Part shown: positions 8,630 to 56,508 of the stretch, piece by piece
Layout of the letters: each line of letters opens with the position of its first letter
Numbering within the stretch: position 1 is the first letter of the stretch
Assembly: GCA_951406725.2 (NCBI GenBank)
Contig: OX597815.1
Coordinates: 72,912,001 to 72,976,000, forward strand
Source: Octopus vulgaris
Lineage: Eukaryota
Direction of reading: 5' to 3'
DNA: 64,000 bases
Program-made: the position numbers and the translations under genes
The notes under the pieces: generated by a model
The model's input: only the letters and a program-made list of their open reading frames with translations
Told to the model about the DNA's origin: nothing
Database searches by the model: none

Positions 8630-11350
8630 AGGAGAAGAGAGTTGAGCCCATGTGGCACAAATGAGCAAAGAGAGAAGATTAATCCCTGTTCACAGCACAA
8701 ACGTGAGTGCGAGTGACCCCTGTGCAAGGAGAATTCGAACACAGATAGGTGTTGCAAAGAGTGACCGGTAGAACGGAAATGGCGCGAGACCGGGGTGTCA
8801 TTGCCGAGTCGGATGACTCGGAGGTGTTCCGCGAACCGGTCAGCTAAGCGGCGTCCTGTTTGCCCGATGTATAGGGAAGGGCAGAGAGAGCAGGAGATGC
8901 AGTAGATCACATTGGTAGAAGTGTAGATGAAGGAGTCCGTGATGTGATAGGGTCGATGATAGGTGCCGGTGAGGAGGATAATGTTGGAGAGGTAAGGGCA
9001 AGTGCAGCAGCTTGGGCGGGAGCAGGGGAACGTGCCGGGTTGGGAGGTTGAGTTAGGGAAGAAGCTGTGGACCAAGAGGTCTCGTAGGTTGTGGGCTCGT
9101 TTGAAGGAGGGGAGGGGTCGGTTAAGTAAGATGTGTGAAGTGGAGGGGTCGGACTGGAGACGCCGGAAGGCTTGGAAAATGGTACGTTGGAGAGGTAGGG
9201 TGGTGGAGTGGTAAATGAGGAGAAACGGGAAATGGGAGACGGCAGGGCGGGTGCGGGGGGAGAGAGCAGATGCGCGGTCCACGGAACATGCTCTGGCAAG
9301 GGTGGTGTGGATAGTGGTGAGGGAATATCCGCGTAGGATGAAGTGGCGAGCCATGAGTTGAGACTGTGTCTCAAAGTCATGGTCGTCACTACGGAGCTTG
9401 CGTAGACGGAGGAATTGAGAATAGAGGATGGAAAGCTTGGTGTGTTTAGGGTGGAAGGAGGAGAAGTTGAGGTATGAGTGTGAGTCTGTGTATTTGTAGT
9501 GGATGGAGATGGTGAGAGTGGAGTGATAAATGCTGACCGAAATGTCAAGAAAGGAGACAGAGGTGTCTGAGATAGTGCAGGAGAAGTGGAGGGTAGGATG
9601 GAAAGATTTGACAAAAGAGAAGAGGGAGTCTAGATGTTCGTGGGAGAGTGAGGTCGCACCGATACAATCGTCAATATAATGGCCGTATAGTTCGGGAGTG
9701 GGACCAGTGAAACTTGAGAATATTTGGGCCTCAACGTAGCCATAGTTGGGGCCCATTCTCGTTCTCATGGCCACTACCGAGAACTGCTGGTAAAAATCAC
9801 CAGTGAACGAGAAGCAGTTGAGTGAGAGGACAACTTCAGCCAGACGAATGATTGTGCATGTGTCGAGTTGGGGGTTGGGTCGAAGATCAAGGAAATGTTG
9901 GAGTGCACGCAGCCTAGGCTCTGGATGTTGAGAGTGAAGAGAAGTTTAGAGGGGCCAAGAGGGAAGAAGAACGAGTTGAACAAACGAAGAGCGTGGTTGG
10001 TGTCATGGATGTGAGAGGGGAGGGAAGCCACTAGGAGGCAAGGACACGGTCAAGATATCTGAAGATGAGCTCGGTGGGGCAGTTTCAGGCGGAGACGATG
10101 GGGCGGCCAGGGTTGTTAGGTTTGTGGATTTTGGGGAGGAAGTAAATAGTGGGTGTGCGAGAGGTGCGGACAGTGAGGTTGGAGGCGGTGGGGGCAGACG
10201 AGAGGAGGTCATGGATAGTGGAGGACTGTTGGTAGGGGGAAGAGGTCAGTAGAAGGAAATGTCTTGAAGTTGGCGGAGAGCTTCTGCCTTGTAGAGGTCC
10301 GCGCACCACACTACCACGGCTCCACCCTTGTCGGCTGGCTTTTATGATGATGTCAGAACGGCCGAGAGTTCGGCTGGGGAGATGTTCAGATGACGGGGAC
10401 GCCTGGAAAACCGGTCAACATCGCACTGGCGGGCACCTGCAAACATCGACTGCTTGGAACTGGCCAGGAGCTGGCGTCCACTGGGATGGTCGGCGGCCCA
10501 GGTCGGTGAAGCAGTCCTCTTCATTATATGCAAGTGGAGTCTCGCGGAAAAGTACACACAATCTAACACGGCGCACAAAGTTGTGGATATCGGCACGAGT
10601 CCGAAATTCATTGCTGGATGGAGTGAGGAGGATGAAGCGCAGACCCCCTACTGAGGAGGGAGCGCTCCGCCTCAGAAAGAGGGAAGATCTGGAGGAGATC
10701 TCTATCTGAAGTGGAGAAGGGGTGGATGGGATAGAAGTAGGAGGCGTGGTGGGGATGGTGGAAGGCTGGGAGGGAGGGGATGGGGGTATGTGTGTGAGGG
10801 TTTGGAGGGACGGGGGTTGGGTGATGGTAGGGGGAGCGTATTAGGGAGGGAGAGGGATAGTGGAGGATTTGGGGAAGTGACATCGGATGTGATGGAATGG
10901 AGGAGTGAGTGGAGTTTACTTTGCTTAGTTTGAGAAATTGATGAAATGATTTAAATGAATTATGCAACGTAACGTAGTGTTTGCATGGGAGGGCGACTGA
11001 GAGGAGAAGAAGATGGAAAAAGCAAGAGGGAGAAGACGATCGATGGTGTGTATTTTGGAGAGATTAGAGCGAATGGTGGCAAGCATAATGCGGTAGGATG
11101 TAGTACGGAGTATGAGTAGGATGGTTGTAGCAGAGTGGAGAGTGGGGTGGAAATGGAGGCGGAAACCTTTAGAGATGAGGCGGTGATACAAGCAGCGACT
11201 GAGAAACGAAATGTGACTACAGAAATAAGTGTCTTTGAAAATTAGTAGGGAAAGGTTAATAGAAGGCTGAAAGCAGCGGAAAGGGGGTGTGCAAAGGTAT
11301 TGTTTTAGACTGTAGTGGAGGTGGTGGAGGAAAGGTTTGTAATCGGGCAT
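8630..11350 (-). pseudogene. Penelope RT + GIY-YIG polyprotein pseudo-ORF (element 1)
   Basis: Pieces in ORFs 10925-11494 (MPDYK start at 11350), 10085-10309, 9774-10031 and 8107-9774. Several frameshifts. The natural end is near VPHGLN (~8640); the rest of the 555-aa ORF is low-complexity read-through. Confidence 0.85.
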
Positions 11351-31022: not shown

Positions 31023-31152
31023 CACACACACACACATCCGAGTTTCTATGATTGTATAGAACAATATACTAATGAGTGAAATTCCAACTTAGTCTGATTT
31101 TCCCGTTTCATTATTTGCAATTTTTACAATTTTACAGTTTCACAATATTGAA

Positions 31153-31194
31153 ATAAACTAGTGCTTTCATGCGTTACGCATTCATCAGGTTTAT
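31153..31194 (-). ncRNA. Minimal type I hammerhead ribozyme, canonical core
   Basis: Minus strand: ataaac-CTGATGA-atgcg taa cgcat-GAAA-gca-CTA-gtttat. Perfect 6-bp stem I and 5-bp stem II. Confidence 0.8.
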
Positions 31195-31599
31195 GTAGGT
31201 GCAGTCGTGTTCCACAGTTGACAGTCAGTTGTGGAACACGACTGCTCCTACATAAACCTGATTAATGCGTTCATCAGGTAAGTACTAGTGTATTTCAATA
31301 TTGTAAAACTGTAAAATTGTAAAGATTGCAAAATAATAAAACGTGATATACAACAGGCTTCTTTCAGTTTCCGTCCACAAATTCACTCACAAGACTTTGG
31401 TCGGCCCGAAGCCATAGTGAAAGACATTTGCCCAAGGTGCCGCTCAGTGGGACTGAACCTGGAACCATGTGGTTGGGAAGCAAGCTCCTTACCACATAGC
31501 CATGACTGCGCCTGGTGGATTCTCAGCAATCCTTCCAAAGACCTGTTAACAAACCCGAGCAAAACCACAGCAGCCTTGTTTTCCAGAGCAAGTCATTGC

Positions 31600-48039: not shown

Positions 48040-48086
<47 letters not shown>

Positions 48087-48150
48087 GAAATGAAGAAAAT
48101 GCTGACAAAATAATTTAAGTAAGGGAGAGTGTATTTAATTAGGTGAAAGT

Positions 48151-48190
48151 TCTTTTTACCGGTTGCGCATTTGTTATGCTTATCAAAAGA
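48151..48190 (-). ncRNA. Variant hammerhead-like motif (U3-A8 core) in the element-2 terminal repeat
   Basis: Minus strand: tctt-TTGATAA-gcat aacaa atgc-GCAA-ccg-GTA-aaaaga. Palindromic stem III accggt; stem I is weak. Confidence 0.55.
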
Positions 48191-48284
48191 TATTTTTTTA
48201 AGAGAGATAGAGTTCCTTTCTGATAGATTTTTTTCTCTTATCTGACTTTATGTTGGGTTTGCTGTCTCTTATATGTGAAAAATG

Positions 48285-48620
48285 AGGCTCCAGAGTTGTT
48301 TAAGATTTGCTTGGTTTCGCGCCTAAAATTTCTTGTGGACAATGGTCAATACAATTTTGATTGGTCATTATAAAGGGTCACGTGAATGTTTGAATGGAAG
48401 TTGGTGTTGGGGTAAGAAAATAGGCTCCAGAGATGTTAAAATTTGGCTAGTGTCGCGCCTAAAATTTCTTATTGGTCATAATAAAGAGGTCACGTGGATG
48501 TGGTCATAATAGAGAGGTCACGTGAATGTTTAGAATGAATGTTGTTGTGGGTGGTGTATGGAGTTTTCGAAAATAGCGTTGTTGAAAATTCTTATTGTTC
48601 AGGCTGGTCAGTAGACGTCA
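48285..48620. promoter_or_regulatory. Putative internal promoter of the Penelope terminal repeat
   Basis: GTCACGTG E-boxes at 48377, 48489 and 48517; ATTGG (CCAAT) at 48360 and 48471; TTTCGCGC at 48315. Lies just 5' (minus strand) of the HHR-like motif. Confidence 0.4.
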
Positions 48621-48737
48621 TGTGGATATTTTAAATAGCTTTTTAGCGCGTAGTTAAGGAGTGTATTTTCCGCTTGACTGAATTTGAACTGGATAAGTAA
48701 GTTCGTTTAGGACAGGAAGAGCTATATGTATGTATGT

Positions 48738-48770
<33 letters not shown>

Positions 48771-49059
48771 TGCTTATATGTATGTTGGGGCGCGCGCGCA
48801 TGTATATATGTGTGCGTGTGTGGGTACAATTTTCAATATTTATAGTTCTGCTGGCCTTGTGCCTGTATCGGGAAGCAACGTGTTTGTGTGAAGTCAATAT
48901 TTACAGTCATTTCCAAAAAATAGTGTTGGATGTTTTGCACCCGTATCAAATTATGTGTATGTGTGGAACCATATATTTGCGTGTGTCATGGTGTTAATAT
49001 CTGGGTAAAAGTGTGTGTAGGGTGTGTGCAGGTGTAAGTGTGTTTGTTGTGGGTTCGTG

Positions 49060-52000
49060 TTAGGGGGATGTGTTTAGAAGTGGTCTGTATTTATTAATAA
49101 GGTGGGATTCCATGGTTATTCGCTGGGTATGAGTGGCATTGTCTTTAAATTTGTAGAGGGGAAAGATTCTAAAATTGGGATGAAGTTGTGCGGCACAGGT
49201 ATCAATATGTGCACTAAGTGCTATTTTTCTGTATTCCTGTATTTTTATTTGGGATCTGTGGACAGTCATGCGTTGGCGGAGGCTATTTTTAGTTTGGCCT
49301 ATGTAGTGTTCATTACAGCCCGAGCAAGTTAAGACATATACTAGGTTTTCTGATGCGCATGTGAAGTTGTGTTTTACTGTGAAACGTTGTCCCTGTTTAA
49401 AAAGGAATTCCGGACCTTCTATTAGGTTGATGCATATACCACAGTTGGGTCTATTGCATTTGTTTACTGTGGGTTTAGTTGTTGTGGTTGGCAGTACTTT
49501 GGCATTTGTTAGGATGGTTTTCAATGATTTGGGTTGCCTTTTGCTCTTTATGATTTCGTGTGTTAGGAGGATTTGGTTCATTCTATGGTCCTTTTTTAAT
49601 ACAGGAATGTTCTGGAGGATGGTGTCAAAAGCTTCATTGTTGAGGGGTTGTGTGTAGAGATGTATGGTAGAGTATGGGGTTTCGATGTAACAGGTTTAGG
49701 GCGTCTAAGTTCCTGTGTGCTGAGTTTTAGGGCGCGTTGGATCCCATTGTCAATTAGTGACGTGGGGTAATCCCTGCTTGTTAATGTGTCCTTAAGTTCT
49801 TGTAGATGTAAGAGACGGGTGTTTTTATTGGAGACTATAGTGCAAATTCTCTTGGCTAAGTTGTAGGGAATGTTAATTTTAACGTGTCTAGGGTGGCATG
49901 AATTGAAAGGGAGGTATTGCTTGGAGTCTGTGGGCTTGTAGTATATGTCTGTTTCTATTTTTTGTTGTGAATTTTAATGAGGATGTCGAGGAAGGGAATT
50001 TGTTGAGGGCTGTATTCCATTGTGAAAATAATGTTTGTGTTGAGCCCATTTATAAGGGTGTGAAATTCTTTAAGCTTCTCGACGGTTTCGGGCCAAAGGA
50101 TGAAGCAGTCATCAAGATATCTCTTCCAGTTCTTCTCTATGTGTGTGTGGAGAGTGGTGCCAAATTGGTTAAGAACGTTATTATAGAGGGTGATTTCCAG
50201 GTATCCCATGACTAGGTTGGCGTAAGTGGGAGCTGTTTTCGTTCCCATTGCCGTCCCTGATTTCTGTCTGTAGAATTTGTTGTTGAAGGTGAAGAAATTA
50301 TTCTCTAAGATGAATTTGAGTCCTTCTAAAATAAATTCCTTTTTGATGCGGTGTGGGAGTTCGTTGGAGTAATTATCCAGCCAGAATTGGATAGCTTCTA
50401 TTCCTAGGTTGTGGGGGATGTTGGAGTAAAGATTAACTACATCGAATGTTACTAGCAGGGTTTGTTCAGCAAGAAGTGTATTGGGGCGGTGGTTGAGCAT
50501 ATCTAGATCGTCCCTTATGTAGCTTTTAATGTGTTTGAGGAAGGGCTTGAGAAGGGTATCAATGAAGTTGCTAAGGCGGTGGGTTTCGCAAGAGGGACCT
50601 GATATTATAGGTCTCAATTTGAGGTCATTTGGTGAGGGGACATTGATTACAGAGTTTGTGGCTTCCTTGCATGCCTTACTTATTAATTCGCTTTTATGAA
50701 TTTTGGGAATACCGTAGAAGAGGCTGGTTTTACTAGTGAAATTTGTGATGAAGTTGAATTCTTTGTTAGTGAGTTCTTCTTTGTGGGGGGTTGATCAGGG
50801 TTTTTAAGTTTCTCATAATTTTCTGTTGATTGTAGTGTTCAGCCTTTTCGTAATATGTTCCATTTTCCAAGGTGGAGAGTGCTAAGTTGATATAGTATTC
50901 TGTCTCCATTAAGACTACTGCACTTCCTTTATCGGCCTCTTTAATGGTGATAGATCTTTCATTTTTTTATTTGTTTAATTCTTCCCACTCTTTCTTGTTG
51001 AGATTTGGTTTTGGTTTTGGTTTGTGTAAGTGTTGGTAGGGGAAGTTTGTAATGTGCTCACAGAATTCGTCTAGGATTTTATTTCTACCTATTGGTGGGG
51101 TGTACTTGCTTTTATTTCTAGCTAGTGACTCATCCTCATTGTGCTGGTCGAATAGTTCCTCACTAAGTCGTAATTTTCTACAAAATTCTGTAATGTCTTC
51201 CTTCATTTCGTAGTAGTTTGGACGTGGGGGGGGGGTGAATTTAAGACCTTTGGAGAGTAAGTTGAGAAGGTTGGGGTTGGGTTCTGTATTGGTGAAATTG
51301 ATGACTTTAATTAGTTTCTGTTTCTCTTCCCTGTCCTGTGTTATTTTGTTTGCCTGTATCTGTGTGCTGTGTCTAAAAAATGATTGGGGTAGAGGGGTTG
51401 TCTGTTGGTGTTAAGAGGTCCTGTGTGTTTGTTATATTCCTTGTTGTGAAATATGGTTCGGGTTCGTGGTTGTGGATAGAATGGGGCGTTCCTGTATTGC
51501 GGGTGTTGGTGTGTGTTTCTTTGTGTCGTGATGGATTGTGGTGATATGAGTGGCCTACGTGGGTGCTTGTATCGAGTGGTATGGGCTTGTTGTGTATTGT
51601 GAGAGTTGAGAAAGTGAAAATTACCTTGTTGTCCCCTCGTGGTGTGGATGTTGTTGTGTCTATCCTGGTAGTGGAATCCTCTTTTATTTGTTAATAAGGT
51701 ATTCGAATAGTTGTTGAGTTGTTGTGTATAGTGTCTCCTTGAAGGGGGAAATTCGTTAATGTAATTCTGGTGGTGAGGGTTTCCAGGGTTCTTGTTCCTC
51801 CTTATGGACGTGGGGTAAGAAGGTACATCTTCAATATGCTGTTTCCTTCTTTTGTTCGAGGTTGGAGGGTTGGTGGAGTAGTTGTGTATATCTCGGCCTT
51901 GTTGTTTCTAATCATTTTCCAGAAGGAGAACTTTCTGTCTCTGAGGGATTTGTTCCATTCTGGGATTATATGATTTTTCAGTTTGTATGAATCAATTTGA

Positions 52001-52233
52001 CATGGTTCTATTTGTTTTTTGGCTGGGTCGGTGGTGGTGAAAAAGGTGTGGATCGTATCACACAGAGTTTGTAGCTTATCGCCGATTTCGGAGGGTTTGT
52101 GTCCGGTAATGGTTTCCTCATTAGTGGAGTCCAATTTGTTGACTAGTACAGAGAGGTTGGTGTTGATGTTTTTGAGTTCTTGTAGGATTTCTTCGTTTAA
52201 GTTGATTAGGGTGGTTTCAGTTTTTGTAGGCAT
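49060..52233 (-). pseudogene. Penelope RT + GIY-YIG polyprotein pseudo-ORF (element 2, ~1050 codons)
   Basis: ATG (MPTKTET) at 52233. Pieces in ORFs 51802-52344, 50967-51206, 49955-50617 and 49060-49581. Several breaks coincide with homopolymer runs. Confidence 0.88.
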
Positions 52234-54409
52234 TTTCTGTATCTCGTGCGGGGATATGATATATAAAAAAGGAGATGTGGAACACGAGTTGTGATATATA
52301 AAAAAAGGAAATGAAGAAAATGCTGACAAAAAAAGAACTTTCACCTAATTAAATACACTCTCCCTTACTTAAATTATTTTGTCAGCACTTTCTTCATTTT
52401 CTTTTTTTATATATCACAACTCGTGTTCCACATCTCCTTTTATATATATATATATATATATTTCTCTCTCTCTCGTTACTCACATGTAACAATCGTCCAT
52501 CTGTCTTTTCCTTAAGTGATCATCTTACTTTTCCTTCAGGACTGTCCTAAGGACTAGACGTATTCTATCTCTCTCTTCTATCTTTTCGCTTTTCAAAGAA
52601 AATATTTCTCCAGTGTTCGCTATTTTACCCTCGTTCTGGTCTAACAACTCTCCATGTTTGTTTTCGTTCTGTTTCTTTTTATGTTTCCACTGTCCTGTTT
52701 TTGTTCCCAACTTTGACACTCCATAAATCCAGAATTTTATTTTGGTATTTATGGGAGTAACTATCTTCGAAGACTCACATTGTCGTTGAATGCACGAAAA
52801 GAGGAATAGACAGCCGACAACTGATGAAGGGTTGTTCTTTGTGTTACTTGTCCTGTTTTCCATTTGTTTCTCTCGTTGTTTGCGTATAGAAGTCATTTGT
52901 TTTCGTATTTCATGTTGTTATATACAGCGGCGTACGTACACCCTTGTGCTCACCTTATAGTAGATATGTATCATTCATAAACACAAGAGTATTATTATAG
53001 TAGATTATCTCGGTAACCATGGGAGCTATGAAAAAATACAAAGCCCAGCATCACCACCGGATCATTCTACACATCTGTAATTTTTCGCGCAATTCCGCCC
53101 AGCCGTTTGACCGTGAATCCCAAGACAAAAAAGAATCACCCATGTCAAATTTATATGTATAGATAGCGGCGTGCGTACACCCTTGTGCTCACCTTATAGT
53201 AGGTATGTATCTAAATTTTGTACGACTCTTACTCTATTTTTTATTCCCCCTCTTATTTTCTCCCTTTTTCTCGCTCCCCCTCTCTCACATTTCTTGACCC
53301 TCTCTTTCTTTAACTCTCACTATTTCCCACTCGCTTATCTCCCTGTACCTTTCTCTTTGACTCTGATTTTTTCTAATCCTTCAATCCCGCTGTCCCCTAC
53401 CCATCTCTCTTCCTTCCACGTGACCGGTGTCCGGCCAGCCATGATTTTTCTTTCTTGGCCTGACTGCCGACCGCCAACACCTCTTGTGTCCATCTTCCAT
53501 GTTCCTGCTTTTAGGCTTTCACTTCATACACGCCAGCACAATTTGATTCGTTCTCAGTCGAAAGACGCCTCTTGTTATTTCTTGTTATTTGCATTCGTAA
53601 TTGTGTACCATGTTCTCTGTTGTTTTTTTTGTGTGTCTTCGTTGCCATACACATCCGCTAGCTTTCTTACAAAGGGGTCTAGACTTTCTTGGGGGCAACC
53701 AGATGGTCGTGACTTCCGGGACTTGACTAATGAAAGAAAGCCAAGAATGACCCGTCTTTTTTTGCCTGTCCATCTAATTGTTGTTTCTCTTGTCCGTCTT
53801 TGTATCGTCTATCTATCCAAACGTTTTAATGCCCTCTATTGCGTTTTTGTTCCATTTATATATATACCACATGTATATCTATGCTATCTAACAATATTCA
53901 TGTGTGTCTGTGTGTGTGTAGAGAGAGAGAGCAAACTCAAGCTCATACACCTGCAATAAATATCGGTTTCAAATTTTGACATGAGGCCAGCAACTTCGGT
54001 GTCGGGTGTAAGCCAATTACCTCGACCGCCAGTCCTCAACTGGTACTTATTTTAACGATCTCAAAAGGATGAAAGGATGAAAGTCGACCCCAGCGGAATT
54101 CGAACACAGAACGTAAAGGCGGACAAAATGCCGCTGAGCATTTTGCCCGGCGTGCTAACGATTCTGCCAGGCTCGCCGCCCAACACCTGCAATACATATT
54201 GCATAAGGGAAAAACGCACGCGCCTAAACACACTTAATGACATCACGTTCATTTCATCGTCGTTGTCGTCGTCATTGTTATATGATCGTTATCCTCATCG
54301 GAGCGTTGTCGTTGTAATACTTTTGACTGCTGACGACATCGTCATCGTTTGTTGTCGCCACTGTAATTGTTGCTCTACTTCGTTGTTCATCACATATCCA
54401 CCATCGTAG

Positions 54410-56371: not shown

Positions 56372-56508
56372 TAGTTGAAATTTACAGAAAAACAAAAGAC
56401 GAAGACAGGTGTATAAACAATAAGCAGGTGTATTAGTTTGATGCTCGAGAAAGTGAGAAAGTCTTTGATATTTCGAGCCTACGCTCTTCAACAGAAAGGA
56501 ACACGATG

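Follow-up and report, generated by a model that had tools for sequence, protein, structure and literature searches.

A hammerhead-type motif with C at position 13 as the apparent family state of a Penelope-like element in Octopus vulgaris

A Penelope-like element (PLE) on the minus strand of the 64,000-nt stretch of Octopus vulgaris DNA analysed here (the window) carries near its 3' end a minimal type I hammerhead-like core (48157–48186, minus strand) in which the conserved A13 is replaced by C (48165, minus strand), and C13 appears from contig comparisons to be the state of the family and not the decay of a single copy. The part that appears to be new is the family-fixed C13; the U3–A8 pair and the PLE pLTR setting are already known. 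Our working hypothesis, held with moderate confidence, is that the hammerhead of this family would be slow and dependent on dimerization and probably on protein, with the element copied mostly from uncut RNA. Hammerheads in PLE pLTRs are well known, their role has been called unclear (Craig et al., 2021; PMC8557442) and their cleavage is dispensable in vitro (Frangieh et al., 2024; PMC11167929); a family fixed for C13 as a whole offers a natural test of that role.

Read along the minus strand, the core runs from U3 (48186) through U4, G5, A6 and U7 to A8 (48181) and A9 (48180), followed by a 4-bp stem II, GCAU/AUGC, in which 48179–48176 pair with 48170–48167 around a 5-nt loop and which includes G10.1–C11.1. 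Then come G12 (48166), C13, A14 and A15.1 (48163), the 6-nt palindromic stem III ACCGGU (48163–48158) and A17 (48157), with the predicted cut between 48157 and 48156. The initial annotation had described a double-variant hammerhead-type motif (U3–A8, C13, 4-bp stem II, accggt palindrome, GUA end), and our reading of the minus strand is the same. When the 978-nt 3' UTR was dinucleotide-shuffled, 2 of 2000 sequences gave an equally good motif; for the last 301 nt the count was 1 of 2000 and for the whole element none of 300, all under a descriptor that allowed one free core deviation and was relaxed after the motif had been seen; inside the 4.25-kb element this motif is the descriptor's sole match. 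Its U3–A8 pair is indeed the known compensatory swap that it had been taken for (PMC4209133; PMC3088659), and a Watson–Crick N3–N8 pair together with U4, G5, A6 and A9 is accordingly present. From the remaining canonical set (G12, A13, A14, A15.1–U16.1 and H17) the motif departs at A13 alone, C taking its place both in the window and across the family, so that it is classed as a hammerhead variant and not as a canonical member. The hallmarks of PLE minimal hammerheads are likewise found, namely a pLTR site downstream of the RT-EN ORF, a palindromic 15.1–16.1 segment and G10.1–C11.1. The motif lies 75 nt before the 3' end of the element; in related elements (L002, L003, L014 and the L072 family) canonical hammerheads lie 44–65 nt before theirs.

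The helices themselves are uneven. Stem I (arms 48187–48190 and 48151–48156, minus strand) has two A–U pairs, both next to the core, and a predicted pairing probability of 0.00, confirming the weakness that had been flagged as the main caveat; a two-pair stem I occurs in 3 of 20 relatives, and 7 of the 20 have a stem I probability of at most 0.06. Stem II, at −1.4 kcal/mol, is weaker than in 18 of the 20. The lowest-energy fold of the monomer forms stem II and hides G5–A8 in a small hairpin, whereas the predicted self-duplex of stem III between two copies, at −8.3 kcal/mol, is the strongest among 22 motifs. Folding z-scores, at −1.05 to +0.40, do not stand out. A search of the whole window at the Rfam gathering threshold gave no match, a test that is insensitive because it also misses a canonical-core minimal hammerhead on the minus strand at 31120–31380 (core from 31188). 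The latter has a 6-bp stem I and a 5-bp stem II within a degenerate palindrome of ~260 bp that is probably an inverted PLE remnant. Two further hammerhead-like remnants on the minus strand, at 56494 (A6U) and 26657 (U4C), each have a single core deviation and a 4-bp stem I.

The host DNA is of animal type, AT-rich and rich in microsatellites, and the 4.36-kb insertion (48082–52441) has (TA)n on either side. The RT region of the PLE ORF (49596–51308, minus strand; PF00078, E 5.2e-9) passes through three frames by frameshifts, and the GIY-YIG endonuclease frame with its CX4CxxC linker of Neptune/Nematis type lies at 49060–49695 (minus strand; PF01541, E 6.7e-7). This copy is broken, with the ORF spread across four frames, and shares 56–65% identity with P0003, an intact protein; of 683 homologues, the best 120 include named matches that are mostly bivalve proteins and bivalve-symbiont assemblies. 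At its 3' end the pLTR (48082–48156, minus strand) extends from +1 to +75 of the predicted cut into the (TA)n microsatellite target (48042–48082). At the other end the main copy begins with a truncated pLTR (52267–52331, minus strand) that starts at +47 to +49 of the cut and is followed by a 36-nt tail, and an inverted pLTR copy (52330–52441, plus strand) has its inner end at −1 to +1 of the start of the predicted 3' product (52330–52332) and its outer end, tail included, at +111, beyond which it runs into (TA)n at 52441–52461. The tail length of 36 nt follows from the ends at +75 and +111. The order of inverted pLTR copy with tail, 5'-truncated pLTR, ORF and 3' pLTR is the standard PLE arrangement, and the features expected of an EN+ PLE of Neptune/Nematis type are present: RT with C-terminal GIY-YIG, a CX2-5CxxC linker, a pLTR, an inverted 5'-truncated copy, a tail in the 30–40 nt range and a (TA)n target. 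The CX4CxxC linker and (TA)n target fit assignment to the Neptune/Nematis type as described by Craig et al. (2021; PMC8557442). The 3' UTR also contains two diverged copies, 76% identical, of a ~135-nt unit (48279–48551), and elsewhere in the window (8752–10341, minus strand) there is a second, more distant PLE-type RT-EN remnant, 26–28% identical to P0003, P0004, P0007 and P0075.

Whether GCAA belongs to the family consensus had been put forward as a check on the motif. The stretch is contained in 20 of 24 runs listed, from 10 studies, none of the 20 being recorded as RNA, and four were compared over 48080–48340, with contigs taken at 80% likeness and variants reported from 5% upwards: X1 (organism A, some 80% of the run covered, 715 contigs), X3 (organism B, 292 contigs), X11 (organism C, kind unrecorded, 131 contigs) and X2 (organism A, RNA by guess only, 8 contigs), the labels A–C possibly standing for fewer than three species. 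At 48157–48186 no alternative letter or indel reached 5% in any of the four. Variants were reported nearby, at 48199, 48200, 48193 and 48127–48132; position 48199 differs in about 10% of depth in X1 and 34% in X11, which shows that the comparison is capable of revealing variants. U3, A8 and C13 are thus kept in at least 95% of depth-weighted contigs, where summed contig depth is not copy count and a GAAA subfamily below 5%, or below 80% likeness, would escape. The consensus is therefore GCAA and not the GAAA that would make the motif a decayed known variant. Loose contig ends further show that subfamily forms with another upstream spacer retain the U3–A9 box. The family is young (653 of 715 X1 contigs are at least 95% alike), and its fixation is accordingly no proof of selection. 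One X2 contig has exactly the window's sequence over 48082–48225 and crosses the cut site unchanged. In the same run (RNA by guess), two contigs with loose ends (48153–48207) differ from the DNA forms by plus-strand T>C alone, which accounts for all visible differences (6 in one contig and 3 in the other); the changes correspond to A>G on the sense strand of the element, touch A17 and the 3' arm of stem I, and resemble A-to-I hyperediting of pLTR RNA in a duplex with the inverted copy.

Among the related motifs recovered here, C13 has no counterpart. A relaxed scan of host-derived PLE contigs within prokaryotic assemblies gave 47 loci (8 of them duplicates), the 26 loci of one MAG being scanned separately; low-score descriptor matches at L042 and L057 (its second match) were removed, and 19 distinct motifs together with L007, recognized by eye, make up the 20 relatives. 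All 20 have GAAA, two have U3–A8 and one family has U4C. The animal PLE contigs found in several prokaryotic genome records (L002–L016, L041–L074) are host contamination, with G005 alone contributing 53 nuclease matches. Published collections made with descriptors that required this sequence show GAAA with A13 in 56 of 56 cases (PMC4209133, Fig. S3, where U3–A8 families are also reported) and GAA with A13 in 34 of 34 rows (PMC8557442, File S2). Perreault et al. (2011; PMC3088659) found U3–A8 to be natural and active and single core deviations to be tolerated at lower activity; among the natural core variants in their text (U3–A8, A6C, A6a, a U13a insertion, U15.1–A16.1 and U10.1–U11.1) a C13 substitution is unnamed. 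In satellite DNA, A13 was changed in just 2 of 198 copies (PMC2837043). Changes at A13 inhibit 10–100-fold, and those at C3, G5, G8, G12, A14 and A15.1 more than 100-fold (PMC4075628, after earlier work); the text of PMC9901934 gives no value for A13. The accessible text of PMC3907566, PMC11014351, PMC2553840, PMC6155905, PMC6765202 and bioRxiv 10.64898/2026.07.22.740005 has nothing on C13, and a literature search on A13, GCAA, cephalopod and Terminon topics, of incomplete coverage so that a prior description in print is possible, found no natural C13 family.

Searches for the motif elsewhere were similarly unproductive. An exact-motif scan of metagenome contigs gave a single match, within a bacterial peptidase-like coding frame and attributed to chance, and viral contigs yielded no loci by protein or by motif. 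A GCAA look-alike at L019/L026 and six sibling loci was rejected for its weak G–U stem II and absence of a pLTR link. A degenerate GCAA pattern had 32 matches in five MAGs against 30 in the reversed control, while a pLTR DNA search found nothing in the five MAGs and 8 short chance matches in 179 genomes. About 150,000 PLE-linked hammerhead variants were reportedly described by Lunse et al. in 2017, and these could already include C13.

The initial annotation had further equated the predicted cut with the 5' boundary of the element, which fits the start of the inverted copy to within 1 nt but not the insertion or the main copy. The inverted copy is identical to the pLTR at 73 of 75 positions. 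It meets the main copy in a run of seven A (52328–52334), of which the main copy may own 52328–52331 and the inverted copy 52330–52334; because the run is shared, the inverted copy may start at 52330, 52331 or 52332, and the cut predicts 52331. The junction has 2 nt of A/T in common. However, the insertion has its boundary at ~52441, position 52331 being where the inverted copy ends on its inner side, and the main copy itself begins 47–49 nt downstream of the cut. Both 5' ends at the locus are at or downstream of the cut, and, going by the control family described below and an even spread of ends up to 50 nt from the cut, the chance that one of the two meets the 3-nt window is about 3%. One X11 contig, whose true end is uncertain over ~5 nt, ends in the same A-run with a flank that is not element sequence. 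We regard the match of junction to cut as suggestive; microhomology in the A-run, or stalling of the RT at a paired stem III, would predict the same junction.

The broader proposal that the motif, or its recent ancestor, defines the RNA 5' end is not supported. Clustering of copy ends at the GUA was not seen: the run tables list no pile-up at the cut, a test that is weak both ways because 23 of 101 loose ends are shown and short-overlap junction contigs were possibly missed. There is no step in depth at 48157 and no fall upstream of the cut, so that most copies would include the whole motif, with the proviso that contig depth is a poor measure. As a control, 40 5' ends were mapped in G005 for a family with many copies and a near-canonical hammerhead (44 loci, accounting for most of 54 matches). 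None fell within 3 nt of the cut, 18 lay at −44 to −18 and one at +28, and 19 of the 40 were within 50 nt; three ends (−750) were probably limited by a truncated reference, none of them close to the cut. Two smaller families had no ends at the cut, and an end that seemed to lie at −3 in L177, of the L067 family, was a palindrome artefact. Hammerhead-bearing PLEs therefore do not, as a rule, end there, and no RNA-seq reads end at the cut site of the Anolis element (PMC11167929). The L072 family of G005 (L075–L104, L178–L191) consists of short copies, often in head-to-head inverted pairs, with U4C in many copies and with several ends exactly at −31, the first base of stem I; its end cluster at −44 to −18 may represent a start site, a splice site or an RT stop at the hammerhead's upstream edge.

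If the hammerhead of this family is slow, as we propose, two RNA copies would pair through the ACCGGU palindrome, the dimer would be cut slowly after A17 at low but non-zero activity, likely needing the element's protein, and RT starting at +75 and +111 would usually read through the uncut motif. An occasionally cut template may have produced the inverted copy, a tentative suggestion that we consider somewhat doubtful. A slow ribozyme is consistent with the position near the 3' end, shared with the canonical hammerheads of related elements, with the rarity of an equally good motif in shuffles (2 of 2000), with fixation across the family and retention of the U3–A9 box in subfamilies that vary upstream, and with the strongest stem III self-duplex of the 22 compared. 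It also agrees with the natural activity of U3–A8 (PMC3088659; PMC4209133), with the 10–100-fold cost of A13 changes, below that of the >100-fold core positions (PMC4075628), with the weak, dimeric cleavage by PLE minimal hammerheads (PMC4209133), with the Anolis PLE hammerhead, which needs protein to cut and whose main insertion template is uncut (PMC11167929), and with depth that holds upstream of the cut. Against it stand the retention of A13 in 20 of 20 relatives and throughout the published sets (56 of 56 and 34 of 34), which are biased towards GAAA, the weakness of stems I and II with G5–A8 hidden in the best fold, and the youth of the family, in which fixation need not mean selection; of the three other hammerhead-like remnants that the window contains, two have core deviations, which fits relaxed constraint.

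We consider a dead relic rather less probable. On this account C13 and the two-pair stem I inactivated the ribozyme of the master lineage, spread continued because PLEs do not need cleavage, and the junction reflects A-run microhomology or an RT stall at the foot of stem III. Catalytic hammerhead mutants leave PLE insertion in vitro unaffected (PMC11167929), and Naiads, which lack canonical hammerheads, are thriving elements (PMC8557442); the 2 nt shared at the junction, the second copy end (X11) in an extended A-run and the gathering of short-copy 5' ends near the motif regardless (19 of 40 within 50 nt) point the same way, as do the A6U and U4C cores elsewhere in the window. Yet the other hallmarks are intact (the 3–8 pair, G10.1–C11.1, the palindrome and H17), the first core box is retained in subfamilies differing upstream, A13 is one of the more tolerant core positions (PMC4075628), and the control ends group upstream, at −44 to −18, with none at the cut. 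A further alternative is a fully competent ribozyme, in which the double variant would be an adapted core whose efficient cut in vivo sets the RNA 5' end, RT run-off then giving inverted copies that start at the cut. This is quite improbable, even though the junction is at most 1 nt from the cut (about 3% by chance), an independent copy (X11) ends in the same A-run against a non-element flank, both 5' ends at the locus are at or downstream of the cut, and the proposed RT starts at +75 and +111 resemble those of Anolis, computed to be ~85–92 nt downstream of the cut (PMC11167929): there is neither an end pile-up nor a depth step at 48157, an X2 contig (RNA by guess) crosses the site unchanged, 0 of 40 control ends are at the cut, and the Anolis RNA-seq reads do not end there (PMC11167929). 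A chance AT-rich look-alike, or another register with C inserted after G12, a C15.1–G16.1 pair and the cut one base earlier, is highly improbable, since the empty Rfam search, unremarkable z-scores, post hoc descriptor and known GAAA-box insertions (PMC3088659; PMC3907566) are set against a sole match in 4.25 kb, 2 of 2000 shuffles, a site matching that of canonical hammerheads in related elements and, for the register, two required deviations instead of one.

The most far-reaching combination, in which this natural hammerhead still cuts with C13 fixed across its family and the inverted copies are genomic footprints of RT run-off from cut RNA, we consider unlikely, but each part would have consequences. 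Cleavage by the C13 hammerhead would mean that the core has been defined too narrowly, with a position treated as invariant being widened, and that surveys based on GAAA miss real ribozymes, possibly including those of PLEs scored as lacking hammerheads. Inverted copies that start at the cut through RT run-off would, if real, show directly that Penelope insertions are shaped by hammerhead cleavage. Should the C13 hammerhead be dead, a PLE family has spread with an inactive ribozyme, in support of dispensability.

The closest known systems are the minimal hammerheads of metazoan PLEs, including the U3–A8 families of Schistosoma and Saccoglossus (Cervera and de la Pena, 2014; PMC4209133), with which the octopus motif shares the pLTR site, an open stem I, a 4-bp stem II with G10.1–C11.1, a short palindromic stem III suited to dimers and U3–A8, and from which it differs in C13, in having no extra nucleotide between 9 and 10.1 and in its two-A–U stem I. 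The core variants of Perreault et al. (2011; PMC3088659) share the U3–A8 covariation, the octopus motif again differing by C13. At the level of the element, the Neptune/Nematis EN+ PLEs of Craig et al. (2021; PMC8557442) have the same RT followed by C-terminal GIY-YIG, CX2-5CxxC linker, (TA)n insertion and 5'-truncated pLTR with inverted copy and tail, the octopus copy having frameshifts. In the Anolis carolinensis PAc Poseidon element (Frangieh et al., 2024; PMC11167929) RT starts at two internal sites downstream of the hammerhead, and the tail marks them; PAc and the octopus element have in common a hammerhead shortly upstream of two RT starts, proposed ones in the octopus, that bound a tail of 30–40 nt (36 nt here), as well as AT-rich targets. 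PAc has a C3–G8 core, demonstrated protein-assisted cleavage and a hammerhead at the ORF start, whereas the octopus element has a Neptune/Nematis-type linker, a (TA)n target and a variant core.
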